A DNA stretch of 64,000 nt from Candidatus Uhrbacteria bacterium (GCA_016206155.1 JACQSC010000004.1:7450-71449), one strand, 5' to 3'. Counted from the first letter of the stretch, positions 3,383 through 58,883 are shown. Notes: generated by a model not told the origin, from the letters alone. Translations and numbers: made by a program.

Positions 3383-4170
3383 ACCCGATACTCAAGCACC
3401 GTATAACCGACTCCAAACGGAGCTTCATATGAGAGAAGGTGCGTGTTCCATGAAAGAGAATCAAGGATTCCGCGTAGAACAATGCTGGGCTGCACTGCAC
3501 AGGCGTTCAGCCTCCGAACATCCTCTCTTTTTATCGAAAGCAGCGCGTCGGGAGCTTTTTTTCGCAATGCATCGATAAACATGTAGTCGAAAGGAAGACA
3601 TATTTTTTCATGTTCCTCTTTCTTTCCCTTTTTAACGCAATGCGCGCAGTCACCGGCCGCTAGACAGATGATGCGCTTTGCCGACCTCTGAAGCGTGCTC
3701 GTGAGCGCGCACCCGAAGGCAAATAAAGCGCGTGTATCAGTATCAGGGGGTTGAACAATGACGACCTTTATTGGAAGCCCCTCAAAAAGCGTGAGTAACG
3801 GGATGCCTGCAGTGTATTCCGGATAGTCGTTGCTGATAAGAGCAAGGGAGATATGCGCGTCACGTATATTGCCCTTGATTTCGGTGCCGAGCACCGTATC
3901 ACAGGCGAATGAACCCTTTGTTACGAGATCGCCGAACTTGCTTACATCGACACAATACTGCTGCGCCAGCTGGAGCTCGAAAACGGTTCGCCGGCGTCGC
4001 CCTTGTTCAGGCGTTTTAATTAACACGACGGTATCAACACCAAGATTGGCGCATGACGCTTTGAGCGTGGCCAATCCTTCAAGCGTCTTTACAAGCATGT
4101 CGTGAGCATCTTTTCCAATTGATGGGAGAAGGAGTGGAGAGTGCGGAATGAGGGCAGCAGAGACAATCAT
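3379..4170 (-). CDS. LigB/MEMO1-superfamily (class III extradiol dioxygenase subunit B-like) protein
   Basis: N-terminus MIVSAALIPHSPLL resembles the LigB-family HxP start; length about 260 aa. Confidence 0.45.
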   Translation of the reverse strand: MIVSAALIPHSPLLLPSIGKDAHDMLVKTLEGLATLKASCANLGVDTVVLIKTPEQGRRRRTVFELQLAQQYCVDVSKFGDLVTKGSFACDTVLGTEIKGNIRDAHISLALISNDYPEYTAGIPLLTLFEGLPIKVVIVQPPDTDTRALFAFGCALTSTLQRSAKRIICLAAGDCAHCVKKGKKEEHEKICLPFDYMFIDALRKKAPDALLSIKREDVRRLNACAVQPSIVLRGILDSLSWNTHLLSYEAPFGVGYTVLEYRV

Positions 4171-4177
4171 AATGGCA

Positions 4178-4210
4178 GGGTACAGGGTTTAGGGTACAGG
4201 GTTTAGGGTT
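4178..4210. repeat. heptanucleotide tandem repeat GGGTACA/GGGTTTA (about 4.7 units); opposite strand CCCTAAA encodes the C-terminus and TAA stop of the 4189..5613 gene
   Basis: Direct reading: gggtacagggtttagggtacagggtttagggtt. Confidence 0.85.
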
Positions 4211-5623: not shown

Positions 5624-8275
5624 TTATGTCGCAGCGGTCGCGGCGGCAAGTTCTTTTGCGTTTGCAATGATGATCGTTTCATCCTTGGCATCGATTTGGA
5701 CGGTGTCGCCCTCCTTTACGCTGCCATCGACGATCTTGAGCGCAAGTTCATTGAGGATACAGTTTTGGACCGCGCGCTTAAGCGGGCGGGCGCCATAGAG
5801 CGGATCGTAGCCGCGTTTTGCCAGAAAATTGACAAGCGCTTCGGTAAATTCAACGGTGATATCCTGCTTTGTCAGGCGTTCGCGCACCTCTTCAAGCTGA
5901 AGCGCAACGATATGCTGTATCTGTTTTTCCGAGAGGGGATGAAAGATGATGATTTCTGTAATGCGATTGAGAAACTCCGGCTTGAAGTGTTTATGGAGCA
6001 CATCCATGATCTTGTCTCGCATTTCATCTTCATCGATGATCTTTGATGCGCGCTCCCCGGAAGAAAAGCCCAATGACGCCTGGCGTAAAAGATCTCCGCC
6101 AAGATTCGACGTCATGATGATAATGGTGTTCTTAAAGTTCACTTTTCGTCCTTTCGCGTCGGTAATATGTCCGTCGTCAAGAATTTGCAGAAGCACGTTA
6201 AATATCTCGGGATGCGCTTTTTCAATTTCATCAAAGAGGATTACGCTGTAGGGCTTGCGGCGGATTTTTTCCGTAAGCTGTCCGCCTTCATCATAGCCGA
6301 CATAGCCAGGGGGGGAACCGATCAGGCGAGAGACGGAATGCTTCTCGCCAAACTCGCTCATGTCGACGCGAATCAATGCTTGTTCGTCGTTGAACATAAA
6401 CTCCGCAAGACTCTTTGCCAGTTTTGTTTTTCCAACGCCGGTCGGACCGATGAAGAGGAATGAGCCGATGGGCTGCTGCTCTTCGGAAAGTCCTGCGCGC
6501 GATCGGCGCAATGCGTTGGCAACCGCCAGGATTGCTTCCTGTTGTCCGACAACTCGCTGTGAAAGAATGTCCTCTGCAGTTTTGAGCTTTTCAGCCTCGC
6601 TTTGAAGAATTTTCATAGCCGGAATGCCTGTCCATCGCGCAATGACCGCAGCGATCTCTTCCTCGGTAACTTCTTCTTTAAGGAAGCGGTGCTTTCGCTG
6701 AAGCGCGGTGAGGCGCTGCATCGTCTTTTTTAAGTCCTTCTCCATCTGGGGAATGATGACGTGGCGGATCTCCGCGACGCGTTGAATATCGACGCGCCTC
6801 TCGGCAATATCTTCTTCTTGTTTGAGTTTATCTATTTTTTTTCTGATGTCGCGGATTTCGGTAATCAACTCTTTTTCGTTTTTCCAGTCGATCTCGAGCT
6901 TCTGCGCCTGCTCTTTGGTCTCGGCAAGTTCTTTTTCAAGCTCCTTCAGGCGCGCCTTTGCATGTTTATCCGATTCTTTGGAAAGCGCCTGTTTTTCAAT
7001 CTCCAGCTTCAGGATCGTTCGTTTGAGCCGGTCGAGTTCGACGGGTTGGCTGTCGATTTGAAGCCGGATTGCCGATGTCGCTTCATCAATGCAATCAATT
7101 GCCTTATCCGGCAGAAAGCGGTCAGCAATATATCGATGAGAGAGGTGAGTGGCAGCAACAATAGCCGCATCGGTAATACGGACTCCGTGATGAATTTCGT
7201 ATTTTTCCTTGATACCGCGCAGAATGGCGACGGTATCGTCAACCGTCGGCTCGACAACGAGTACGGGCTGGAAGCGGCGCTCAAACGCGGCATCCCGTTC
7301 AATATATTTCTGATATTCCTTCAGCGTCGTCGCGCCGATGGTCCGCAGCTCACCGCGCGCCAGGGCGGGTTTAAGCATATTTGATGCGTCAATTGCGCCT
7401 TCAGCGCCTCCCGCTCCCACTACGGTATGCAGCTCATCGACAAACAGGATCACCTGGCCGTTCTTGCTTGTGATTTCTTTGAGCACCGCTTTAAGGCGAT
7501 CCTCAAAGTCTCCACGGAATTTTGTTCCCGCAACAAGCGACCCCATGTCAAGCGCAAGAATCTCTTTCTCCTTCAGCGATTCGGGGACGTCGCCGGAAAC
7601 AATGCGCTGGGCAAGCCCCTCAACAATGGCGGTTTTTCCAACACCCGCCTCACCGATAAGAACGGGATTATTTTTCGTCCTGCGCGAAAGCACCTGAATG
7701 ACGCGGCGGATTTCCTCATCGCGTCCGATCACGGGATCAAGTTTTTCGTGGCGCGCTTGATCCGTAAGATTCACTGCATATTTACTGAGCGCCTGGTATT
7801 TGCTCTCCGGATCAGGGTCGGTGACTTTTTGCGTTCCGCGTAACTGGGCAAGAATACGCAGGACAGCATCGTAGTCGATTTTATAAAGTTTAAGAATTTT
7901 TTCCGCCGGAGAGGGGGTTTGAATAAGCGCGAGAAAAAGGTGCTCGGTACTGATATACTCATCGCGAATATTTTTCGCCTCTTTCTCTGCTTGATTGAGA
8001 ATTTGCGCGATCTCCTTTGAGATATAGATCTGGGCGGTGCCCCCTCCTGAGACGTAGGGGATAAAGCGAAGCTCTTCCTCGAGCTCCTGTTCAAGGGTTG
8101 TAACAGGTATCTCGAGTTTTTGCAGAAGACCCGAAACAATGCCTTCTTGTTGGCGGACGAGAGAGAGAAGAAGATGGAGCGAGGTGATTTCTTGATGGTT
8201 GCGTTCGGCGGTTAGCTTGTGCGCATGTTGAAGCGCTTCCTGCGCCCGGGTCGTAAAGTTATTATTTTCCGGCAT
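5624..8275 (-). CDS. clpB: ATP-dependent chaperone ClpB
   Basis: Two AAA+ modules ([16 protein letters not shown]), long coiled-coil middle domain, Clp N-domain. Confidence 0.95.
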
Positions 8276-9876: not shown

Positions 9877-10434
9877 ATGTACCTCTTCATTCATGCAGCA
9901 GAACGAGAGTATGCGTATCTCCTGCTCGTTGGCAAAAGCATGCCCCGCACCACGATGCGGGGTAAGGAATTGTTAGAATTCCTTACTTTTGGTGACCTCG
10001 TTGTTTATACAAAGTACCTTGTGTATCGGGGAAAGAAATCCCCCGATGTGTTGCGCGGCATCGATGATCTACTGAATCAATTTGGTCTCGCAGCAAAAAG
10101 TCTGAAGGGCATCTGCGTGCTTTCCGGTCCGGGGCAATTTTCGTTTTTGCGAACATCGGTGGTAACTGCCAACACTTTTGGGTGGGCGTTGAACATTCCG
10201 GTTGTTGGTATTTGCGACAAGAAAATGGTGTCTGGTTCCAAGAAAATGGTGTCAGGTACAATTTCCGAAGAAATTGAACCAGACACCATTTTCTCAGACA
10301 CCATTTTCTCGCATAACACCATTTTGTTCATCACGCGCGGTCTCAAAAAGCTCTCGCGCACAAAACGTTTTCGTCCGGTTGTCCCGGAGTACGGCAGAGA
10401 GCCCAACATCACGACGCCGAAGAAAAGAATATAA
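9877..10434 (+). CDS. tsaB: TsaB (YeaZ)-like N-terminal domain protein carrying an in-frame palindromic repeat insertion
   Basis: LSGPGQFSFLRTSVVTANTFGWALNIPVVGI matches the TsaB GPGSFTGLRIG...A..LP..G motif; the C-terminal part is atypical. Confidence 0.5.
   Translation: MYLFIHAAEREYAYLLLVGKSMPRTTMRGKELLEFLTFGDLVVYTKYLVYRGKKSPDVLRGIDDLLNQFGLAAKSLKGICVLSGPGQFSFLRTSVVTANTFGWALNIPVVGICDKKMVSGSKKMVSGTISEEIEPDTIFSDTIFSHNTILFITRGLKKLSRTKRFRPVVPEYGREPNITTPKKRI
10221..10325. repeat. 105-bp nested palindromic element: 2x GAAAATGGTGTC(A/T)GG, central palindrome, then 2.5x inverted copies
   Basis: Direct reading; the same 15-nt termini recur at 14769..14822. Confidence 0.85.
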
Positions 10435-12408: not shown

Positions 12409-12937
12409 TGTTTTTATAGCACATTCTCATGTTATGCACAGTTGCGTGGTTGAAGGGGGTATGTTTGTGGTGTATAATAGGCATTACATGGTGAAATGTG
12501 GGGAAAAGTGGTGGATAAGTAGGGGACAAATGTGGACAAATAAATGGTTCACAACCCGAAATGCTTATAACTGTAAGCAATAAGTCAAAATGACAAAGCC
12601 CAAATACCAAATCAAATCAAAAGTTCAAATACTAACAAATGGCCCTGTATTTTTGCCATTAGGATTTTTTCATTAGGATTTTTCAAACTATGCTTGTCGT
12701 GTCTTATTTACTAGCAAACAGGAAGTTTTTATACGGGTATCTGCGAAGCGCCATTGCCACCGCGCATCCCCATGCCGCGCGGTGGCGAAGGCCGAAAATC
12801 TAATGGTTTCATTGTTAAATTGCAGAAAAGTTTTATTCCCATAGAGGTTTCTCTAACACGTTTGGACACAGATTAAAGAGATTAAAACAACAATGTGCGG
12901 TAGCAATGTAACAATTTGACAATAGAGCAATGCAACT

Positions 12938-13369
12938 ATGTTCATAGGCGAATACAATCATTCAATCGATGAAAAAGGCCGACTGGCGGTACCGGCGAAG
13001 TTTCGTGCTGAGCTGGAAGATGGCGCAGTTGTCACGCGAGGGCTTGATAACTGCCTTTTTTTGTATACTCAGCAGGAATGGAACATCCTTGCCCCACGCA
13101 TAGCCCAGCTTCCGATTCATCAGGCGAACAGTCGTGCATTCTCGCGACTGATGTTATCCGGCGCCATGGATGTACAAGTCGATAAGCAGGGAAGAATTAT
13201 TGTACCCGACTATCTTCGCTCATACGCCAAACTCAAGAAAAAGGTGGTTATTGCCGGTCTCTACAATCGTCTTGAAGTGTGGGATGAAGCTATCTGGGCA
13301 GATTACAAGATGCACACAGAAGAGGAGAGTGGGGATATTGCGGAGCAGTTGGGGGAGCTGGGAGTCTAA
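12938..13369 (+). CDS. mraZ: transcriptional regulator MraZ
   Basis: Duplicated MraZ domains (DEKGRLAVPAKFR / DKQGRIIVPDYLR). Confidence 0.95.
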   Translation: MFIGEYNHSIDEKGRLAVPAKFRAELEDGAVVTRGLDNCLFLYTQQEWNILAPRIAQLPIHQANSRAFSRLMLSGAMDVQVDKQGRIIVPDYLRSYAKLKKKVVIAGLYNRLEVWDEAIWADYKMHTEEESGDIAEQLGELGV

Positions 13370-13370
13370 A

Positions 13371-13449
13371 TACATTGTTACATTGTTACATTGCTGGCGT
13401 TTAACAATGTAACATAAGTGAGCGAAGCGAGCGATAACAATGTAACAGT
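13371..13449. repeat. cluster of ACAATGTAAC / GTTACATTGT motifs between mraZ and rsmH (tacattgt x3 tandem, then 2 inverted copies)
   Basis: Direct reading; another copy at 12903..12915 upstream of mraZ. Confidence 0.8.
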
Positions 13450-13469
13450 TGATTGTTTGAGTAAGTGAA

Positions 13470-14366
13470 ATGATGATACAGCATAAAACGGTTTTACGAG
13501 AGGAGGCGATTCGTTACTTAGGTGTTCTTTCAAATCATCATTACGTTGACTGCACATTGGGCGGCGGCGGCCACACAGAAGCCATACTGGATCGTAACGG
13601 GACAAAAGGACGCGTCATAGCGTTTGAGCTTGATGCTGATACGATTGTACGGACGAAGAGGCGTCTCAAGCGTTTTGGCGCACGATTGATTGTTGTTGAG
13701 GATAATTTTAGAAGTATTGGGAGAGTAACAGAATATGGTATGCCGATCTCCGGAATACTCTACGACCTTGGTACGTCGATGGACCTTTTGAAAAGCAGCG
13801 GTCGCGGATTTTCCTTCCTTGTCGATGAACCGCTTGATATGCGATTCTCTCTTTCAACAGAGAGAACAGCCGCAGATCTTATCAGAACAACACGGGAATC
13901 TGAGCTTGCCGATCTCATTTTTCGATACGGAGAGGAGCGATTGAGCCGCCGCATCGCCCATGCAATAATGCAGACACGTACGCACACTTCTATCACGACC
14001 ACGCGCGAGCTTGTTTCGGTCATTGAGCGGGCGGTGCCGCCATCATATTGTCGAGGTCGTATCCATCCAGCAACACGAACCTTTCAGGCGTTGCGCATCG
14101 CAGTCAATGATGAATTGGAGTGCCTTTCAGAGTCCCTTGAGCAGGCAATGGCGCTTATTGAAAGGGGTGGACGCATCGTCGTCATTTCGTTCCACTCGCT
14201 TGAAGATAGGATTGTGAAACAGTTCTTTCGAATACAAAAATTAAAAAAAACAGGCATCATTTTAACGAAAAAGCCGATTACTCCTTCGCGCGAAGAGATT
14301 GAGAAAAATCCAAACTGCCGCAGTGCAAAACTTCGCGCGCTGGAAATACTAACCCCTAGACCCTAA
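13470..14366 (+). CDS. rsmH: 16S rRNA (cytosine1402-N4)-methyltransferase RsmH
   Basis: DCTLGGGGH SAM-binding motif, mraW family layout, dcw position. Confidence 0.95.
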   Translation: MMIQHKTVLREEAIRYLGVLSNHHYVDCTLGGGGHTEAILDRNGTKGRVIAFELDADTIVRTKRRLKRFGARLIVVEDNFRSIGRVTEYGMPISGILYDLGTSMDLLKSSGRGFSFLVDEPLDMRFSLSTERTAADLIRTTRESELADLIFRYGEERLSRRIAHAIMQTRTHTSITTTRELVSVIERAVPPSYCRGRIHPATRTFQALRIAVNDELECLSESLEQAMALIERGGRIVVISFHSLEDRIVKQFFRIQKLKKTGIILTKKPITPSREEIEKNPNCRSAKLRALEILTPRP

Positions 14367-14385
14367 ACCCTAAACCCTAAACCCT
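14353..14385. repeat. CCCTAGA/CCCTAAA heptamer tandem repeat (4.5 units) overlapping the rsmH stop codon
   Basis: cccctagaccctaaaccctaaaccctaaaccc; rsmH ends ...LTPRP* with its TAA inside the repeat. Confidence 0.85.
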
Positions 14386-14390
14386 TCTTT

Positions 14391-14768
14391 GTGTCGATCA
14401 GTTTCAAAAGAATAAAAAGCAAGTGGACATCAACCGAAGCTATTCGTAGCCAAAAAATTGCTCTCTCTTGCCATAAGCTGTCACGGGCGCACATTGGTGT
14501 TCTCTTGACAATCGCCGTTTTTTCACTAGTCTATCTCGTACAAGTGAATACGCTTGCGACAAAGGGATATGCAATTCGAGAGCTCGAGCGGGATATTGCG
14601 ATTCAAAAGAAGGAATACGAACGGCTTCAGCTTGATATCATAGAAAGACAGAGCATGGGCGCACTGCAGGAGCGTATTGCTCAATTGGGCTTTGTTCCGG
14701 CTGATCGCATTGATTACCTTTCACCGACCGCTGCGGTTGCGACGGCTGTTGCAAAACCATCACGCTGA
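14391..14768 (+). CDS. ftsL: FtsL/DivIC-like cell division protein
   Basis: Single TM helix plus coiled coil; located between rsmH and ftsI. Confidence 0.55.
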   Translation: MSISFKRIKSKWTSTEAIRSQKIALSCHKLSRAHIGVLLTIAVFSLVYLVQVNTLATKGYAIRELERDIAIQKKEYERLQLDIIERQSMGALQERIAQLGFVPADRIDYLSPTAAVATAVAKPSR

Positions 14769-14822
14769 GGTGAAAATGGTGTCAGGAATAGTTTCTGCAA
14801 AAACTATTCCTGACACCATTTT
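14769..14822. repeat. 54-bp perfect palindrome with GTGAAAATGGTGTCAGG termini (second copy of the 10221 element family); likely intergenic hairpin or terminator
   Basis: 25-bp arms, 4-nt loop, directly after the ftsL stop. Confidence 0.85.
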
Positions 14823-14913
14823 CACTAGGAGAGAAGTGTAATCCGCATGGGGCGCGACACGTCTCGCGAGAACAACCAGCGACTTTTCTGCGCGCTGGTT
14901 GTTTTTGATTTGA

Positions 14914-16857
14914 GTGGATTTTGATACAATAGATACTATGATGACATTTCGTTCACGTACGAAACGAAGATCTGTGCGCGCTCATCAATTGGGCGGTTTC
15001 CATGCAATCCAGTCGCTTAAAGCTCTTGTTCGCATTGACCGCATCAGCTTCCTGAGGGGGTGCTTGTTTTTCTTCGTGCTCATATTGTTCCTGCGCCTCT
15101 TTAACCTCCAAGTTTTAAGTTACGAGGACTATCGGACGGCAGCGGAGGGCGAACATCAATTATTGAGAAAAATTCATCCCGACAGAGGAAGTATCTTCCT
15201 GCGAGAACGTTCTGCCAACGGGAGCGCAAACCAGTATCTGATGGAAGTTGAGGGGGAAAAGCTTTTTCCCGCGGTAACGAATCGTGAGTATATGCTCGTC
15301 TATGCGGTGCCAAAATCAATCAGTGACCCAGAAAAGGTCGCCGATCAACTTATGCCGCTCTTTGACATTCCAAAAGAGGAGCCAAAGAGCGATGATGACA
15401 ACAACGGTGACAAGGATGGCATTGATCCGCGCGAAGAGCGGCGTGCGTGGCTCGTTCAAAGACTGTCAAAGAAGAACGATTCGTACGAAGTGATCAAGAG
15501 GAAGGTGCCGGCGGCAAGCTGGGATATAATCAAAAAGCTGTACATTGGCGGAATCAACGCAAGCCCGGAAAGCTATCGGTTTTATCCCGAAAAGGGATTG
15601 GGCGGGCATCTTTTTGGGTTCGTGGGGTATAGCGGCGAGAGCGTCAAGGGGCTGTATGGGCTCGAGGGTTATTTTGACGATATTCTGAAAGGTAAGGAAG
15701 GATCTTTGCGATTCGAGTCAGATGCCCTTGGCGCGCTGATTCCCATCGGGGAAAAGCGCGTTGTTGAGGCGGTTCAGGGAAGCAACCTTGTATTAACGAT
15801 TGACCGAACAATTCAGCTCATGGCGTGCGATCGCCTTTCAAAATGGGTTCTCAAACACGGCGCCGATGGAGGGACCGTTGTTATTATGAATCCCAATACC
15901 GGAGCCCTCTATGCCATGTGCAGCGTACCCGACTTTGATCCTGAAAACTATTTTGATGCAGATGTGAAGCAGTATCCGAATCCCTCAATTTTTACTCCCT
16001 ATGAACCTGGTTCAATATTTAAGCCGTTTACCATGGCAATGGGCATTGACAGTGAAAAGGTTGCCCCGGCAACGACCTATGTTGATACCGGCGAGGTAAA
16101 AATTGGATCGTTCACCATCAAAAATTCTGACAGCAAAGCGCACGGCAAACAAACCATGATGGATGTTCTCGATCAATCACTCAATACGGGCGTGATCTTC
16201 GTCGCGCGCAAAGTCGGTATCGACGCGTTTCGTGATTACGTAAAGAATTTTGGTTTTGGGAAGCCGACAGGCATAGAGCTTGACCGGGAAGTATCCGGTA
16301 CGATCGCGGGACTGAACGAGAAGCAGGAGATTTATATGGCAACCGCATCATTCGGTCAGGGTTTGAGCGTAACGCCGCTCCAAATTACCACTGCCTACGC
16401 CGCTCTTGCCAACGGGGGCAATCTTGTGCAACCCTATGTTGTAGATGAGATTATCAAGTCTGACGGCAGCCGCCATCGCACCAATCCAAAAGTAGTCCGA
16501 CGGGTCATATCGGAAAAAACTTCAACACTCATCAGCAGTATGTTGGTGAACGTTGTGCGCAAAGGACACGGGAAGCGCGCTGGTGTTGACGGCTATTACG
16601 TCGCGGGCAAAACCGGCACCGCGCAAGTTGCACGCAGTGACGGCAGGGGGTATGAGCGCGACATCACAATCGGCTCATTTGCGGGTTTTGCGCCCGTTGA
16701 TAACCCTCGGTTTGTCATGCTTGTCAAAGTAGACCATCCACGGGATGTTCAGTGGGCGGAAAGTTCCGCGGCGCCACTTTTTGGCGAATTGGCAAAATTT
16801 TTATTACAGTATTTTGAGGTGCCGCCTGATGAAACAGAATCAAGAAGCAAGAATTAA
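14914..16857 (+). CDS. ftsI: peptidoglycan D,D-transpeptidase FtsI / PBP2-type penicillin-binding protein
   Basis: SIFK (SxxK), KTGTA motif, PBP dimerisation domain; acidic low-complexity insertion. Confidence 0.9.
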   Translation: MDFDTIDTMMTFRSRTKRRSVRAHQLGGFHAIQSLKALVRIDRISFLRGCLFFFVLILFLRLFNLQVLSYEDYRTAAEGEHQLLRKIHPDRGSIFLRERSANGSANQYLMEVEGEKLFPAVTNREYMLVYAVPKSISDPEKVADQLMPLFDIPKEEPKSDDDNNGDKDGIDPREERRAWLVQRLSKKNDSYEVIKRKVPAASWDIIKKLYIGGINASPESYRFYPEKGLGGHLFGFVGYSGESVKGLYGLEGYFDDILKGKEGSLRFESDALGALIPIGEKRVVEAVQGSNLVLTIDRTIQLMACDRLSKWVLKHGADGGTVVIMNPNTGALYAMCSVPDFDPENYFDADVKQYPNPSIFTPYEPGSIFKPFTMAMGIDSEKVAPATTYVDTGEVKIGSFTIKNSDSKAHGKQTMMDVLDQSLNTGVIFVARKVGIDAFRDYVKNFGFGKPTGIELDREVSGTIAGLNEKQEIYMATASFGQGLSVTPLQITTAYAALANGGNLVQPYVVDEIIKSDGSRHRTNPKVVRRVISEKTSTLISSMLVNVVRKGHGKRAGVDGYYVAGKTGTAQVARSDGRGYERDITIGSFAGFAPVDNPRFVMLVKVDHPRDVQWAESSAAPLFGELAKFLLQYFEVPPDETESRSKN

Positions 16858-16916
16858 GAATTATGCGTGGACGTCACACCCTTGACTCTTAATTCGTAAT
16901 TCGCAATTCTTCAAGG
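16843..16916. repeat. AAGAATT-type repeat plus imperfect inverted copy (hairpin) spanning the ftsI stop
   Basis: aagaagcaagaattaagaatt ... aattcgtaattcgcaattctt. Confidence 0.7.
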
Positions 16917-36800: not shown

Positions 36801-37439
36801 ATGGCAACAAACAACAAACAGCTTCTTGAACAATCATACCTGAAATACAAAATCTGTGTCTCCGGTTCTGCCGACACTTTCCATTGCCTTCCTGGGGCAT
36901 TGGAAAAAGCAAAAGAATTGGGTCGACAAATCGTCCTTCATAACGGCGTGCTCGTCACCGGCGCAACAACGGGCATCCCCTATTGGGCGGCGATCGGCGC
37001 GAAAGAAGCGGGCGGCATTAGTATTGGTATCTCGCCGGCCGCATCGGAATTGGAGCATGTAAAAAAATATCGTCTTCCTGTCGATTACTTTGATCTTATC
37101 ATGTACACCGGCTTTGAATATTCGGGCCGCAACCTGCTTCTCGTTCGCACGACCGATGCCGTAATTGAAGTGTGCGGACGCATCGGAACGCTCAATGAAT
37201 TCACCATCGCATTTGAAGACAAGAAGCCTGTCGGCGTTCTCGAGGATACCGGCGGGACAACGGCGATGATTCGTGACATCTTAGAAACTGCGCATCGCGG
37301 TGAGGGAAAAATCGCCTACAGCCCAGATCCAAAAGAGTTGATCGACAAAGTCATCGCACTGATTGACAAGGAAAAGGTTGTTCCGATTCCAAAATATGAA
37401 TACGCGAAAGGACGGCCTAATGGAAAGCGCCGCGGATAG
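36801..37439 (+). CDS. TIGR00725/LOG-like (SLOG) Rossmann-fold nucleotide-binding protein
   Basis: KICVSGSA...LVTGATTGIPYWAAIGAKEAGGISIGISP pattern. Confidence 0.6.
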   Translation: MATNNKQLLEQSYLKYKICVSGSADTFHCLPGALEKAKELGRQIVLHNGVLVTGATTGIPYWAAIGAKEAGGISIGISPAASELEHVKKYRLPVDYFDLIMYTGFEYSGRNLLLVRTTDAVIEVCGRIGTLNEFTIAFEDKKPVGVLEDTGGTTAMIRDILETAHRGEGKIAYSPDPKELIDKVIALIDKEKVVPIPKYEYAKGRPNGKRRG

Positions 37440-37444
37440 ATATG

Positions 37445-37579
37445 CCCCGCACTTAAGAACGATTGTTGCCCATTATTCATCCGTACGTTTATGATGCACA
37501 CCACCATTATTATTGATCAAACGATTTTCTCAGTGTACATACGACGAAACACGGGGATGAATCGTTCTTAAGTGCGGGG
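37445..37579. promoter_or_regulatory. perfect 20-bp inverted repeat (CCCCGCACTTAAGAACGATT / AATCGTTCTTAAGTGCGGGG) enclosing 95 nt, ending 1 nt before the rpiB ATG
   Basis: Direct reading; 20/20 complementarity. Confidence 0.8.
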
Positions 37580-38033
37580 TATGCTGTATATTGCCTCTGA
37601 TCATGCAGGATTTGCATTAAAGGAATACCTCAAACGATTTTTGAAAAAACACTCAATTGCCGTTGAGGATATTGGCGCACATAGATACGATAAGGCGGAT
37701 GATTTTCCTCGCTATGCGTTTTCCCTTTCAAAAAAAGTCGCCTCGGATTCCTCACATCGCGGAATTCTTCTTTGTGGAAGCGGGCAAGGCATGTGCATTG
37801 CGGCAAACAAAGTAAGGGGCATACGCGCAGCATCTGTGTGGAACAAAAAAAGCGCTATTGCTTCGCGACACGACGATGACACAAACATTCTTTGCCTTTC
37901 CGGCCGCATGCTCACGAGAAAAGAGACTGAAGAAATTCTTTCATCGTGGCTCTTTACCGGATTCTCCGGTTTGGCACGCTATAAGCGCCGGCTAAACCAA
38001 ATTGCCGCCTACGAAAAAAACTCCCGCGCATAA
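37572..38033 (+). CDS. rpiB: ribose-5-phosphate isomerase B
   Basis: MLYIASDHAGF...LLCGSGQGMCIAANK RpiB/LacAB motifs; the likely start is ATG 37581. Confidence 0.9.
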   Translation: MRGMLYIASDHAGFALKEYLKRFLKKHSIAVEDIGAHRYDKADDFPRYAFSLSKKVASDSSHRGILLCGSGQGMCIAANKVRGIRAASVWNKKSAIASRHDDDTNILCLSGRMLTRKETEEILSSWLFTGFSGLARYKRRLNQIAAYEKNSRA

Positions 38034-38234: not shown

Positions 38235-38343
38235 ATACCCATTATTTATTATTTAATACCTATTAGTATAGCACATTTAAAAAAATTAACTCCCTTGCTA
38301 TACTATACTAAACCCTAGACCCTAGCCACTAGACCCTATTTTT

Positions 38344-50351: not shown

Positions 50352-52034
50352 TTAATCGGCGACAGAAAACACTTCATCAACGGACGTAATTCCCTCCAAC
50401 GCGCGCAGGAGACCATCCTGAATCATGGTGACCATGCCATTCTTAACCGCGATATCCTGAATCTGATATTCAGAAGATGATTTTGCCAGTATGAGTTGCT
50501 CAATATCAGGGCTCATGACCATGATCTCATAGATACCGATGCGCCCCTTATACCCAAGGCCATGGCAGGTATCACAGCCTTCTGCCTCAAAAAAAATAAG
50601 ATGTTCCATATCAACCTTTACACCGCTTTTTGGCGAAATGGCGAACAACTCTTTTCTGATACGATCGATTGTTTCCCGCTTTGGTACCGCAGATTTTTTA
50701 CAGCTCTGGCACAGACGCCGCACCAAACGCTGTCCGATAATGGCGTTGAGTGATGGCGCAAGCAAGAACTCTCGAACCCCCATGGCAAGGAATCGCGGAA
50801 CCGCGCCCGCGGCGCTGTTCGTGTGAATCGTTGAGAGTACGAGATGCCCGGTGAGCGCCGCGTTGATCGCGGTGTCAGCCGTTTCCAAATCTCTAATTTC
50901 GCCAACCATAATAATATCGGGATCTTGGCGCAGAATCGATCGGAGGCCTGTTGCAAAAGTGTAGCTTTTTGAGGTATCAATTTGACTTTGATTAATTCCT
51001 CCGAGCTTATATTCAATAGGATCCTCAAGGGTGATAATCTTAATCTCGGGCGTATTGAGATAGTTTAAAATCGCATACAGCGTTGTGGTTTTACCAGATC
51101 CGGTCGGTCCGGTCGTAATAACCATGCCGTTTGGCTTATCAACCTGACTCTTGAGAAGCGCGTTGGCATACGGAGACAGCCCCAAGTCCTCAAAGCTTAA
51201 CCCCGCTGCCGTTGAACGCAGGAGACGCATGACAACGCTTTCCCCATACCCTGTAGGAAGCGTTGATACGCGAACCTCCACCTTGTCATTTTTAAAATGA
51301 ATCGTAAACCGTCCGTCCTGAGGCCGATCAATAATATTAATTTTTAGCCCTGCGGTAAGCTTGACGCGCGAAATGAGCTGCTTCCACAAATCAGGAGAAA
51401 GCTCGGCAACGTCATGAAGAATTCCGTCAATGCGCAGGCGCGCTTTAATATCCTTCTCTTCTGCTTCGATGTGAATATCGGACGAACGCGTCGCAAGCGC
51501 AACGGCAACGAGAATGGTGATAATATCTGTAACATTTTTGTCGGCAAGCCTCTCCTTAAGCGTCCGAATGTCGGCATATTCATCACCGTAAAGCTCAAGG
51601 TCTTTTTCTGAAATTTCTACACCGCTTGTCTCTTCCTTTATATGCGGTATTTGCGCATAGAGCTTCAAGGCGGAATCAAGGCTTTCCTTCGTGATAACGT
51701 ATACCGAAATGGTGCTGTGTGTTTTTTTTTGAAGGTTTTCAAAAAATGCCTTGAGGTCTTCGTTGTACGGATCAAGAACGGCGACGCGCTTCTCCTCAAT
51801 TTCTGAAGAAAAGCACACAACACCCAGAGCGCGCGCGTCCTCCTCAGAAATGAGCTCGAGCGCGTTTGAGGGAATCGGCATACCCACAAGGGAAATGTAT
51901 GGCAAACCGGAAGAATAGGCGAGCATCTGCGCTTCTTGCGCTTTTTGCTTAAGAGCAAGGTGCGCCATCTTCTGCTGGAGCCTCTCCTCGGCGCTAGAAA
52001 ACCCTTGCGCTGACGTGATCGTATCATCAGGCAT
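50352..52034 (-). CDS. pilB: type II/IV secretion system ATPase (GspE/PilB family)
   Basis: T2SSE_N domain, Walker A GPTGSGKTTTLYA, Asp box, His box, Cys4 motif. Confidence 0.9.
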   Translation of the reverse strand: MPDDTITSAQGFSSAEERLQQKMAHLALKQKAQEAQMLAYSSGLPYISLVGMPIPSNALELISEEDARALGVVCFSSEIEEKRVAVLDPYNEDLKAFFENLQKKTHSTISVYVITKESLDSALKLYAQIPHIKEETSGVEISEKDLELYGDEYADIRTLKERLADKNVTDIITILVAVALATRSSDIHIEAEEKDIKARLRIDGILHDVAELSPDLWKQLISRVKLTAGLKINIIDRPQDGRFTIHFKNDKVEVRVSTLPTGYGESVVMRLLRSTAAGLSFEDLGLSPYANALLKSQVDKPNGMVITTGPTGSGKTTTLYAILNYLNTPEIKIITLEDPIEYKLGGINQSQIDTSKSYTFATGLRSILRQDPDIIMVGEIRDLETADTAINAALTGHLVLSTIHTNSAAGAVPRFLAMGVREFLLAPSLNAIIGQRLVRRLCQSCKKSAVPKRETIDRIRKELFAISPKSGVKVDMEHLIFFEAEGCDTCHGLGYKGRIGIYEIMVMSPDIEQLILAKSSSEYQIQDIAVKNGMVTMIQDGLLRALEGITSVDEVFSVAD

Positions 52035-52045
52035 ACCAATACCAA

Positions 52046-52165
52046 AAAGAATGAAGAATCAAGAATTAAGAATTAAGAATTAAGAATTAAGAATTAAGAA
52101 TTAAGAATTAAGAGGACCCATGATATGCCTTGCTTCGTAATTCTTACTTCTTAATTCTTCATGAT
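52046..52165. repeat. (AAGAATT)x7 tandem repeat followed by an inverted partial copy (hairpin-forming), between ftsH and pilB
   Basis: Direct reading. Confidence 0.9.
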
Positions 52166-52198
52166 TGCAATGAATACAAACCATGAGAACAGAGCTTG

Positions 52199-54031
52199 TT
52201 ATTCAGATGATTCGTTCGCCTCTTTTGCAAAGAGTGCATCAAACTCCTCCTTTTCAAGCATTTCCTTCTCTAAGAGTAATTGTACCAGAGATTCAAGCTT
52301 TTCTCTATGGGTATTCAAAATATCTTGAGCTGTGCGCGCCGCCTCTTCTATAAATGCGTTCATCTCCTCATCAATGCGTTCGGCGGTCTTCTCGCTGTAA
52401 TCTCTCTGTTCGGTAATCTCTCGTCCCAAAAATATCATCTCTTCCTTCTCGCCAAACGTGCGCTGTCCAAGCGCGCTCATACCATACTGTGTCACCAGCT
52501 TGCGGGCAATGCGGGTTGCTTTCTTAAGATCATCGCTCGCACCAGTTGTCACGTCGCCAAAAATTGTTTTTTCTGCGGTATATCCGCCAAGAAGCACCGC
52601 GAGTTCCGCCTTAAATTCAGAACGATTCTTGAATATCCTGTCTTCTGTCGGAAGGTTCAACGTGTACCCTGCCGCATGGCCGCGAGAGATGATGGAAATT
52701 TTCTGCACAGGCGGTGCGGCAGGAAGAATATGTGAAACAAGCGCATGGCCACCCTCGTGGTAGGCGGTAATTTTTTTCTCTGCATCAGACATGAGTCGTC
52801 CCTTCCTCTCCGGACCCAAGATAACTTTCTCAATGCTTGAAAGTATGTCGGGCATCGTAATGATGGCGCCATTCTTGCGCGCAACAAGAATCGCCGCCTC
52901 GTTCAAAAGATTGGCAAGATCGGCGCCGGAAAATCCAGGGGTGCGGCTTGCGATACGATTAAAATCTACATCTTGTGCCAGCGGCTTGTTGCGCGCGTGC
53001 ACCTTAAGAATCTCTTCGCGATCCAGAATCATTGGAAGATCAATAATCACCCTGCGATCAAATCTTCCGGGACGCAGAAGCGCGGGATCAAGCACGTCAG
53101 GACGGTTGGTCCCGGCAAGCACAACGACATTATCGGTTGGATCAAACCCATCCATCTCCACAAGAATCTGGTTGAGTGTCTGTTCGCGTTCGTCGTGCGA
53201 TCCGCCAAGACCCGCCCCGCGCTGGCGGCCAATAGCGTCAAGCTCGTCGACAAAAATAATGCACGGAGCATTTTTCTTTGCCTGCGTAAAAAGATCACGA
53301 ACACGCGCGCTCCCGACGCCGACAAACATTTCGATAAATTCAGAACCGGACACGTGAAAGAACGGTACCTCGGCTTCTCCGGCAACAGCTTTTGCGAGCA
53401 GTGTTTTCCCGACTCCCGGCGCACCCATCAACAACACTCCCTTCGGAATCTTTGCGCCAAGATCGTGAAACTTTTTCGGCTGCTTTAAGAACTCAATAAC
53501 CTCTGCAAGCTCCTGCTTTGCCTCTGCCGCACCAGCAACATCGGCAAACGTAATCTTGTTCTTGGTTTCTTTGGGGTCAAATTTTCGCGCGCGGCTTGCG
53601 CCAAATGAGAGAGCGCGCGTATTGGCGCCCTGTACCTGGCGAATCATCAGGAAGACAAAAAAGGCAAGGAGGAGAAAGGGAACAAGGAAAGAAAGAATCG
53701 TGTTAATCCAAAAGTTCTTTGTCTGATCCTCGATCGCCAGCTCTATTTTCCCGGTCTTTTCCGGACTGACATCAAAGTTTTTCAAAAGCGTGCTCAGGGA
53801 TTCGCCGGGCTCCTTGTGGGCAATCTCTTTTTTTCCGTCGGACAGCTCAATTTCCAGCGTCTCGCCTTTGACATCAATTTTTTTCACCTTCTCATCCTTA
53901 ATCTGCGCAATGAGAATCTCAATCCCGACGGTTTCCGGTTTTTGCGGTCCTGCGGTGTAGAGGCTGAAGAACGCTCCGACAGCGATCATCGCGACGAGAA
54001 AAACAATGACGTTTTTTATGATGGGGTTCAC
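52199..54031 (-). CDS. ftsH: ATP-dependent zinc metalloprotease FtsH
   Basis: AAA Walker A/B, SRH, HEGGHAL zinc motif, two N-terminal TM helices. Confidence 0.95.
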
Positions 54032-55317: not shown

Positions 55318-55497
55318 TATTGACCTTCGCCTATTGCGTTAACATGAAAAATGTATGATTTTGAGACAGATCCGCTGCTCTGGAACCGCAAAAAACCACA
55401 GTCGTACTATCAGTACGATGAGGATTTTTTGTGGCGAAGAGCAAGGAGCTGGTCAAAATCATAGGCTTTTCGTTAAGGTAATAGGCGAAGGTCAATA
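55318..55497. promoter_or_regulatory. 180-bp element bounded by perfect 18-bp inverted repeats (TATTGACCTTCGCCTATT / AATAGGCGAAGGTCAATA), filling the hppA-rpsA intergenic region (rpsA leader)
   Basis: Direct reading; internal hairpin cgtact-atc-agtacg. Confidence 0.8.
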
Positions 55498-57487: not shown

Positions 57488-57496
57488 ACAAGAAAA

Positions 57497-57530
57497 GGGG
57501 TTAGGGGTTAGGGGTTAGGGGTTAGGGGTT
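57497..57530. repeat. (GGGGTTA)x5 tandem repeat; the opposite strand supplies the last codons (TPNP) and TAA stop of nusA
   Basis: Direct reading. Confidence 0.9.
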
Positions 57531-58764: not shown

Positions 58765-58772
58765 ACTAAATA

Positions 58773-58806
58773 GGGTTTAGGGTAGAGGGTTTAGGGTAGA
58801 GGGTAT
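58773..58806. repeat. GGGTTTA/GGGTAGA heptamer tandem repeat (about 4.7 units) between the CAP-domain gene and nusA
   Basis: Direct reading. Confidence 0.85.
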
Positions 58807-58883
58807 AGTAAAAAAGGATAGTGTAACCACTATCCTAATGTTTCATATACTACTACAAGCACCCTGTTTAGTCAAGGGGACGC

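Follow-up and report, generated by a model that had tools for sequence, protein, structure and literature searches.

AAGAATT-armed hairpins at two operon junctions of a Candidatus Uhrbacteria genome: a candidate young palindromic element with look-alikes in other bacteria and in phages

What is a tandem array of AAGAATT heptamers, folded back on an inverted copy of itself, doing between ftsH and pilB? The question is raised by a stretch of 64,000 nucleotides from a Candidatus Uhrbacteria bacterium (GCA_016206155.1, JACQSC010000004.1:7450-71449), hereafter called the window, which contains two AAGAATT-armed copies: site 1, at the end of ftsI and before murF, and site 2, in the spacer between ftsH and pilB. 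The explanation we favour, with a probability of about one half, is that both loci represent a young, small palindromic intergenic element, enlarged by slippage at site 2 and serving at most as an intercistronic stem-loop.

On the plus strand, positions 52047-52113 of site 2 read AAGAATG AAGAATC (AAGAATT)x7 AAGA. Tandem Repeats Finder (TRF), applied to the window, reports the same interval with period 7, 9.6 copies and 96% matches, and 52061-52113 is an exact period-7 run of seven perfect AAGAATT units plus AAGA. Both results confirm the seven perfect units between ftsH and pilB which an earlier description made from the sequence alone (the sequence-only reading) had noticed. An inverted copy of 27 bases, cgtaattcttacttcttaattcttcat, is located at 52136-52162. 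It had been placed 25 nt from the array with two mismatches; the copy is indeed present, the gap is 22 nt, and the two mismatches hold for a 21-nt core (90% complementary), three being found over 28 nt (89%). As terminal inverted repeats, the arms of site 2 are 82-89% complementary over 28-39 nt, a feature shared with miniature inverted-repeat transposable elements (MITEs).

On the minus strand, which is the sense strand here, the ftsH stop codon (52201-52199) is followed by 36 nt of unique sequence (52163-52198) that relatives lack as well. The 5' arm (52132-52159, minus strand) consists of four heptamers, AAGAATT AAGAAGT AAGAATT ACGAAGC, paired in the minimum-energy fold, its minus-strand AAGAATT units lying at 52153-52159 and 52139-52145; an AUG at 52162-52160 precedes it and opens a mini open reading frame (ORF) of three codons, AUG AAG AAU UAA. 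The loop (52114-52131, minus strand) is 18 nt long and reads GGACCCATGATATGCCTT on the plus strand, and ATATGCCTTG at 52123-52132 spans part of it together with the first arm base. The 3' arm (52047-52113, minus strand) is the TRF array read as (AAUUCUU), of whose 9.6 units about four can pair at once, in several registers nearly equal in energy. Its expanded core (52061-52109, minus strand) comprises seven identical, slippage-prone AAGAATT units and, because these units are identical, the expansion must be recent. Finally, 12 nt without a Shine-Dalgarno motif (52035-52046, minus strand, UUUGGUAUUGGU) separate the array from the start codon of pilB; joined to the last unit they give CAUUCUUUUUGG, so that the outermost stem register is followed by a short run of U. 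Independent Logan assemblies match both edges of the array, and short-read contigs from three samples end inside it.

Site 1 lies on the plus strand. Its left arm (16835-16862), with AAGAATTAAGAATT at 16849-16862, is made of the four heptamers CAGAATC AAGAAGC AAGAATT AAGAATT and encodes the last seven residues of FtsI and the stop codon TAA (16855-16857), the protein ending in ...PPDETESRSKN*. That a second, shorter copy overlaps the ftsI stop (...SRSKN*), the TAA being supplied by the repeat, was thus correctly seen in the sequence-only reading. A loop of 21 nt (ATGCGTGGACGTCACACCCTT, 16863-16883, plus strand) leads to the right arm (16884-16911, plus strand), again four heptamers, GACTCTT AATTCGT AATTCGC AATTCTT, which ends 8 nt before the murF ATG (16920). 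The arms are 71% complementary over 34 nt, and the whole of site 1 is identical, base for base, in an independent Logan assembly (L238).

Evidently, both sites are built on the same plan, with about four plus four heptamers (an arm of some 28 nt), a loop of 18-21 nt and, in second position, the same imperfect unit, AAGAAG(C/T). Site 2 departs from it in its start-proximal (pilB) arm, which has been lengthened to 9.6 units. The former description of this site as an array with a partial inverted copy therefore holds insofar as it is a hairpin, and is improved by calling it a hairpin of about four plus four heptamers with one arm expanded. That the two loci have one unit in common and form hairpins at gene ends, as had been claimed, is borne out.

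Chance is excluded as the source of these arrays, since AAGAATT arrays of at least three units did not appear in any of 200 shuffles of the window. AAGAATT-type 14-mers with at most three mismatches number 29 in the window, compared with 10.5 expected, and all strong matches are at the two loci. Folding of both regions as RNA, which had been proposed as a check, gave for the sense strand of the ftsH-pilB spacer -38.6 kcal/mol (z = -3.9), a value equalled by none of 200 shuffles, and an A/U stem of about 29 bp; the value for site 1 is given below. In truncated site 2 transcripts the full stem is predicted once four units are present, at about -21 to -24 kcal/mol. The predicted stem re-registers along the array at nearly equal energy. 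Its outermost register is the lowest, at -28 kcal/mol, and is followed by UCUUUUU, the other registers being followed by AAUUCUU repeats. Neither site has the GC stem and 3-8 nt loop of a classic terminator, their stems being A/U-rich and their loops 18-21 nt or more. Every unit, as read from the sequence, carries TAA on both strands, so that a run of three units closes all three frames whichever way it is read.

Comparison with relatives dates the gain of the element. Contigs encoding close homologues of PilB or MurF, the closest with about 90% protein identity, were used for this purpose. The ftsH-pilB spacer, 164 nt in the window, measures 14 nt in L084 (PilB 90% identical), 15 nt in L089 (89%), 6 nt in L085 (75%) and 24 nt in L087 (73%), and no AAGAATT unit was found in any of these four spacers. 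In L091 (MurF 82% identical) the ftsI-murF spacer is about 7 nt long and likewise contains no AAGAATT unit. There FtsI ends in ...PPDEVTPK*, as against ...PPDETESRSKN* in the window, so in the window the element has taken the place of the last four codons (VTPK) with their stop, supplying the seven codons TESRSKN and a repeat-derived stop. No AAGAATT array was detected in 771 kb of other loci (mostly Patescibacteria), including about 80 kb of the compared relatives. Because the spacers are short in three successive outgroups, the most parsimonious reading of these sequences is that both copies were gained in the lineage of the window after its split from the nearest sampled relatives. The remaining arrays of the nusA-pilB operon likewise have no counterpart in L084, or only a much shorter one.

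Positional conservation, by which the sequence-only reading had proposed to tell the arrays from neutral slippage, thus fails: relatives with 73-90% identical PilB and 82% identical MurF keep the gene order and have spacers of 6-24 nt free of AAGAATT. Judged from these alignments, the element is not a conserved regulator, as follows from the absence of its unit from the relatives' spacers.

One finding runs counter to this lack of positional conservation: hairpins of a similar make with other units occur at corresponding places. In L092 (MurF 70% identical) the same ftsI-murF junction carries a hairpin of TACATTGT-like octamers and inverted copies, and more tandem-armed hairpins are present in this contig at mraZ-rsmH and after murF, which indicates that such hairpins arise repeatedly, with different units, at these junctions. 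About six hairpins armed with tandem 7-9-mers of other units (AAATCAT, AAAGCTA, AAATCCG, AAATAAA, GATTTGA, AATTAACCT) were counted in the 771 kb, mostly in Patescibacteria loci (L007 212-291, L033 1029-1098, L042 5609-5759, L069 5515-5578; L092 937-1063 and 7367-7525). The tandem-armed hairpin is therefore a general architecture, not bound to AAGAATT. The window has an octamer array of its own between mraZ and rsmH, (TACATTGT)x3 with two inverted copies (AACAATGTAACA), and CAATGT(A/G) motifs upstream of mraZ (13369-13454 and 12868-12937), which may be MraZ operator-like; the L092 hairpin of this unit type at the ftsI-murF junction is at 5920-5991.

Hairpins with the same unit were looked for in metagenomes. 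The pattern AAGAATTAAGAA-N(12-42)-TTCTTAATTCTT retrieved at least 120 stretches, and details of the arms were obtained for 80 of these loci. The match almost always lies within longer in-phase heptamer arms, with 4-5 units per arm in three quarters of the loci (60/80) and stems of 30-70 bp. The G+C content of the contigs ranges from 27% to 69%, and the 90%-identity clusters of flanking housekeeping proteins have named members in Marseilla massiliensis, Bacteroidales, Phocaeicola/Bacteroides and Terriglobales. Close relatives of the window organism were not found among 100 hairpin loci, the best tblastn identity being 51%, for universal proteins. In a large group from Bacteroidales the arms, AAGAATT AAGAGTT AAGAATT AAGAAAA, hardly vary, whereas the centres differ and are often palindromic; up to three copies occur within 7.8 kb (L097), and several contigs contain multiple and nested copies.

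These metagenomic hairpins are intergenic and their placement is that of 3'-end, terminator-like elements. Convergent neighbours outnumber divergent ones by 22 to 7 (p = 0.004), and between co-directional genes the hairpin is nearer to the upstream stop in 27 of 32 cases (p = 6e-5), the median distance being 21.5 nt to this stop, compared with 59 nt to the start that follows. At one locus (L160), a classic terminator with a GC stem has (AATTCTT)4 as its U-rich tail. Bidirectional intrinsic terminators, in which a hairpin is flanked by pairable A-rich and U-rich tracts, also occur after stop codons and between convergent genes. The class as a whole resembles them in its post-stop placement, whereas the copies in the window have no GC core and are situated within operons that need downstream expression.

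A viral collection contained 20 stretches with AAGAATT hairpins, compared with 1, 0 and 3 for permuted heptamers. A further point of contact is the 10-mer ATATGCCTTG / CAAGGCATAT in the loop of site 2, which equals the core (inner stem) consensus of the Bacteroidales-type hairpins and was found in five of the 80 loops (L126, L134, L169, L170, L171); having been noticed post hoc, it is an unexplained lead, either homology or coincidence. At the gathering threshold, Rfam returned only tRNAs from the window and 15 metagenomic hairpin loci, and in an E-value search of the 52-kb region the highest sub-threshold score, 24.6 bits where 72 are required, went to generic plant miRNA-precursor hairpins. 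No annotated counterpart was found when the window element and one Bacteroidales-type hairpin were compared by BLAST with a plasmid collection. Literature searches with the repeat strings gave no relevant context, only unrelated primer and sequence matches, and a search for tandem repeats in the candidate phyla radiation (CPR) gave nothing relevant. The AAGAATT-armed hairpin is thus described by no Rfam family, nor in the literature searched.

On the favoured explanation, the element would have arisen in, or been inserted into, operon junctions otherwise 6-24 nt long, either by insertion of a mobile palindrome or by slippage in situ followed by a template switch at the AATT quasi-palindrome. 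The arm of site 2 beside the pilB start would then have grown from about four to 9.6 units by replication slippage. The junctions are presumably transcribed within polycistronic mRNAs, in which the element would fold as an A/U-rich stem (about 29 bp at site 2) sliding between registers. Such a stem could act as a weak, leaky terminator or pause site. Alternatively or additionally, it could be an exonuclease or RNase III barrier or a cleavage site, since duplexes as long as this are the textbook substrates of RNase III. By either route ftsH would become uncoupled from the pilB message (and ftsI from murF), and the TAA-bearing units, in all six frames, would end stray translation. Leader-peptide attenuation through the mini-ORF of site 2 was considered and rejected, as the 3' arm leaves the pilB start uncovered and site 1 has no mini-ORF of its own.

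Several observations weigh against this explanation. The RNA of site 1 folds more weakly (-21.5 kcal/mol, z = -2.1), only modestly better than its shuffles, and the sequence 3' of it, CAAGGUGU, contains no U-run. Consensus terminator and promoter scans of the window flagged neither hairpin, and both sites are devoid of the GC-rich central stem common among the metagenomic examples. A strong terminator inside conserved operons before murF or pilB would be harmful, hence termination must be weak; the closest sampled relatives have no element, which means that the cell does not need it, and for these two reasons any effect is expected to be modest. When filled sites were aligned with empty ones (L084, L089, L091), no target-site duplication was visible, the spacers being too diverged for comparison at the level of single bases, and no transposase turned up near the elements in a window whose ORFs were not systematically scanned. 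As to the look-alikes, their likeness to the window copies consists of low-complexity sequence and one shared 10-mer and could be due to convergence, and the viral enrichment is inflated and only suggestive, since 14 of the 20 stretches belong to one phage family.

A more far-reaching claim, which we hold only tentatively, is that there exists a cross-phylum family of AAGAATT hairpins to which both window copies belong. Its members would have about four heptamers per arm, a second unit that is often "marked", and a centre peculiar to each copy and frequently palindromic; its range would include Bacteroidales (with high copy numbers in some), Terriglobales, phages and this Uhrbacteria genome. 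What is unexpected in our observations is that one unit and one arm length return across phyla; the rest is a variation on known kinds, namely heptamer repeats, REP-like hairpins (for REP, see below) and terminator-like stems.

Could both sites be nothing more than a neutral local accident? Heptamer slippage in an A/T-rich spacer, followed by a template switch at the AATT quasi-palindrome, would yield a functionless hairpin that is tolerated as intergenic. We consider this less likely than the favoured explanation, yet a serious alternative. It accounts for the absence of the element from close relatives at both sites and for the seven identical units, which mark a very recent expansion. It is also in keeping with the window as a whole. 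TRF lists 14 period-7 arrays there, with nine exact runs compared with 0-1 for periods 6, 8 and 9, and the 771 kb of other loci yielded 102 period-7 rows versus 37 of period 6 and 44 of period 8. Period 7 is thus the favoured non-triplet period in both sets, which fits the slippage bias described in PMC4679880, and heptamer richness contrasts sharply between sister lineages. According to Mrazek et al. 2007, as cited in PMC4679880, heptanucleotides are favoured among long simple sequence repeats (LSSRs), which are ascribed to polymerase slippage. LSSRs are tandem arrays of 5-11 nt units that exceed the length expected by chance in the genome concerned. The array of site 2 is long enough to be an LSSR and resembles LSSRs in being a perfect 7-nt tandem array beyond chance, intergenic and sporadic among related lineages. 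Unlike them, it forms one arm of a hairpin with a four-unit partner, the same unit and plan being found again at another locus of the window as well as in other phyla. Slippage alone does not readily produce two loci within 64 kb with the same unit, the same four-plus-four plan, a similar loop and the same imperfect second unit, nor the non-random placement of the metagenomic copies. Unit and arm length moreover return in phyla unrelated to this one, even in genomes of 60-69% G+C, in which slippage would not be expected to yield A/T-rich products. That AAGAATT-armed hairpins are so widespread, and are placed like terminators, speaks against an accident of slippage peculiar to this genome.

Quite unlikely, in our judgement, is a role of the G-free (AAUUCUU)n as an unstructured, pyrimidine-rich translation leader, which in a genome with few Shine-Dalgarno sites would recruit ribosomes (e.g. 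through protein S1) or a post-transcriptional regulator to pilB and murF, much as has been proposed for TAACTGA repeats, with the inverted copy as a tuning device. The idea draws on the heptamer arrays of the window, others of which adjoin start codons. Eight arrays end 5-12 nt 5' of start codons, the sense strand being the G-poor one in every case (two-sided binomial p = 0.008). There is also a parallel in the TAACTGA direct repeats found near Shine-Dalgarno-less starts, with a patchy distribution in Beggiatoaceae, Cyanobacteria and Bacteroidetes, only one of 169 sets being indirect (MacGregor 2015, PMC4679880). Like these repeats, the window elements place forward heptamers close to an ATG (12 nt before that of pilB, 8 nt before that of murF) and contain a stop in the unit. 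Their sense strand is G-free and has no GGAGG. They differ in the unit itself (AAGAATT / AATTCTT), in forming hairpins and not direct repeats, and in belonging to a wider class that is nearer to stops than to starts. Moreover, relatives translate the same genes from spacers of 6-24 nt without any array, and the metagenomic class, by its position near stops and its enrichment between convergent genes, fits 3'-end elements. We know of no protein that binds (AAUUCUU)n, which also counts against such a role.

As for the gene starts of the window, inspection by eye indicates that most have no GGAGG-like Shine-Dalgarno motif and that their upstream sequences are A/T- or pyrimidine-rich. Many operon junctions are just 0-30 nt long. 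Telomere-like C-rich heptamer arrays (ACCCTAA, ACCCTAG, ACCCTGT, AACCCCT) occur in the window at 4176-4210, 14349-14385, 38308-38338, 57496-57530 and 58770-58808, and in L092 at 457-486 and 1970-2001. They end 5-8 nt before start codons and in each case have the C-rich strand as the sense strand; two overlap the stop of the upstream gene; the template strand contains 4-5 GGG/GGGG runs and could form a G-quadruplex. The array between rsmH and ftsL, unlike the AAGAATT elements, is kept in position in L092 (three units versus five), only traces being present in L084.

Very unlikely is a purely DNA-level role, the repeats being paired arrays of binding sites for a DNA-binding protein or transposase, or a mobile element of the MITE or REPIN type (REP doublets, see below) and the RNA hairpin incidental. 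Arms of 4-5 units on both sides in most of the 80 loci, from different phyla, would suit this view, as would the Bacteroidales copies with their near-identical arms, differing centres and multiple or nested occurrence on contigs. The window itself holds other small palindromic families and a MITE-like insertion, and Geobacter provides a precedent. In Geobacter metallireducens, paired arrays of 3-5 tandem 7-9-mers on opposite strands, species-specific and located e.g. at proB-proA (Aklujkar 2009, PMC2700814), were termed "putative global regulator binding sites" (PMC2700814). The likeness is one of architecture only: inverted tandem arrays (4+4 and 4+9.6 units here) with gaps of 18-21 nt, intergenic, multicopy and lineage-specific. 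The Geobacter units (MTYCTGA, GTTGCTYN, TCTCCGTS) are different, their DNA-binding role is hypothetical, and no AAGAATT family was reported there. Besides the target-site duplication and transposase that, as mentioned above, were not seen, it tells against this view that only two copies occur in 64 kb and that 7 bp is short for a protein site.

Repetitive extragenic palindromic (REP) sequences and the bacterial interspersed mosaic elements (BIMEs) and REPINs formed by them are likewise intergenic palindromes, often in operons or between convergent genes, and as stem-loops in mRNA they stabilise upstream cistrons or terminate transcription. REPs bear a GTAG or CGTC tag, depend on a RAYT (Y1) transposase and number tens to hundreds of copies in a genome; REPINs combine two conserved arms, inverted relative to each other, with a spacer that varies. 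The window elements share with them the placement and the arm-spacer layout, whereas REP arms are not tandem heptamers. The tag is absent from the arm ends, which read ATGAAGAAT / ATTCTTCAT and CAGAATC / AATTCTT, the only CGTC at the elements being inside the loop of site 1, and no RAYT gene was seen in the window, whose ORFs were not scanned for transposases.

Least likely of all is a contingency locus in which the number of units changes register, spacing or terminator strength and so switches the type IV pilus ATPase: the long perfect repeat does lie directly upstream of a surface-appendage gene, its registers are near-isoenergetic with only the outermost, the lowest in energy, followed by a U-run, and repeats in 5' untranslated regions (UTRs) control Moraxella surface proteins (a case cited in PMC4679880) and Coxiella has strain-variable heptamers, but short-read contigs break in the array, so that no copy-number polymorphism is readable, the second copy precedes the housekeeping gene murF and is unexpanded, and a 7-nt unit in a UTR leaves the reading frame unchanged.

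The Coxiella case is instructive in another respect. In Coxiella burnetii, the terminal stem of an intervening sequence (IVS) in the 23S rRNA measures 28 bp and includes tandem heptamers that differ in number from strain to strain; RNase III cuts this stem, and the IVS is deemed selfish (PMC4990558). Its stem equals four heptamers, as do the arms in the window. IVSs are inserted in helix 25 or 45 of 23S rRNA, often with an S23p ORF in the loop. The Coxiella IVS differs in being located in helix 45 and in carrying such an ORF, whereas the window elements lie between protein genes and their loops have no ORF. A Saccharibacteria contig (L041, CAYIEH010000029.1) contains, at 3995-4167, 4-5 TTAGAAT-type heptamers and an inverted copy around a remnant ORF (MENNKLKSFKDLKVWQKAADLATLVYK...), with a weak NCBIfam match to NF008911 (E = 0.001) and no Pfam match. 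This ORF resembles the four-helix-bundle protein of 23S IVSs, which may connect heptamer hairpins with IVSs. As an explanation of the window elements the link was dropped, and it is kept only as a lead, as a motif search of all loci for S23p or four-helix-bundle ORFs found only L041 and none near AAGAATT hairpins.

The genes around both sites were identified with Pfam, which agrees with the previous assignment of ftsH, pilB and ftsI. Upstream of site 2, ftsH (52199-54031, minus strand) encodes Peptidase_M41 and AAA domains; downstream lies the gene of a PilB-like T2SSE ATPase (50352-52034, minus strand). Site 2 is thereby part of the gene string nusA / H+-PPase (proton pyrophosphatase) / S1 / ftsH / pilB, whose order around the site is kept in L084, L085 and L087. 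A promoter-like site is present at 58875-58847 upstream of nusA, and the sole canonical terminator of the string follows pilB at 50336-50311. Site 1 belongs to the mraZ-rsmH-ftsL-ftsI-murF cluster, where Pfam recognises the transpeptidase domain of penicillin-binding proteins (FtsI) and a Mur ligase (MurF).

Other structured sequences were noted in the same operons and elsewhere in the window. Between the promoter-like site (TTGACT-N17-TAGTAT) and nusA, at 58815-58836 (minus strand), there is a leader hairpin with a T-run (AGGATAGTGGTTACACTATCCT TTTTT). It is kept in L084 (about 2670-2695), where a compensatory change turns a T-A pair into C-G and a second change involves a wobble pair, and in L085 (about 3470-3500), and it looks attenuator-like. 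The spacer between H+-PPase and S1, 209 nt in the window versus 29 nt in L084, contains the MITE-like insertion of about 180 nt (55318-55497) with terminal inverted repeats of 18-26 nt (TATTGACCTTCGCCTATT...); its terminal sequence is also found just upstream of pilB in L090 (1-30, in an 80% relative), at a contig break. A second palindromic family (10220-10325 and 14770-14825) has conserved arms, (G)AAAATGGTGTCWGG, and a palindromic centre that differs in each copy. One copy is a perfect palindrome of 28+28 nt that starts 2 nt past the stop of the gene at 14391-14768, the other has its arm tandemly duplicated on both sides. The longest inverted repeat of the window, at 37442-37582, has arms of 40 nt (80% complementary, 61 nt apart) and lies between a gene ending at 37439 and one starting at 37572.

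For the biology of this organism, the element marks a very fast turnover of operon junctions. In the nusA-pilB and mraZ-murF operons, almost every junction has a lineage-specific repeat, hairpin or MITE absent from the nearest relatives, which bears on the evolution of reduced CPR genomes and on the expression of operons without Shine-Dalgarno sites. Should the number of units vary in the population, the array might switch a type IV pilus gene, which would be relevant to an episymbiotic lifestyle. The fixed arm length behind genes of unrelated phyla may point to a terminator or insulator of a kind not yet recognised, or to a small mobile element. If the cross-phylum family is real, it would have been spread horizontally or shaped by a universal machine, such as RNA polymerase termination, RNase III or another binding protein; its hairpins would combine two-way transcription stops with six-frame translation stops, and the CAAGGCATAT core of site 2 would be homology.

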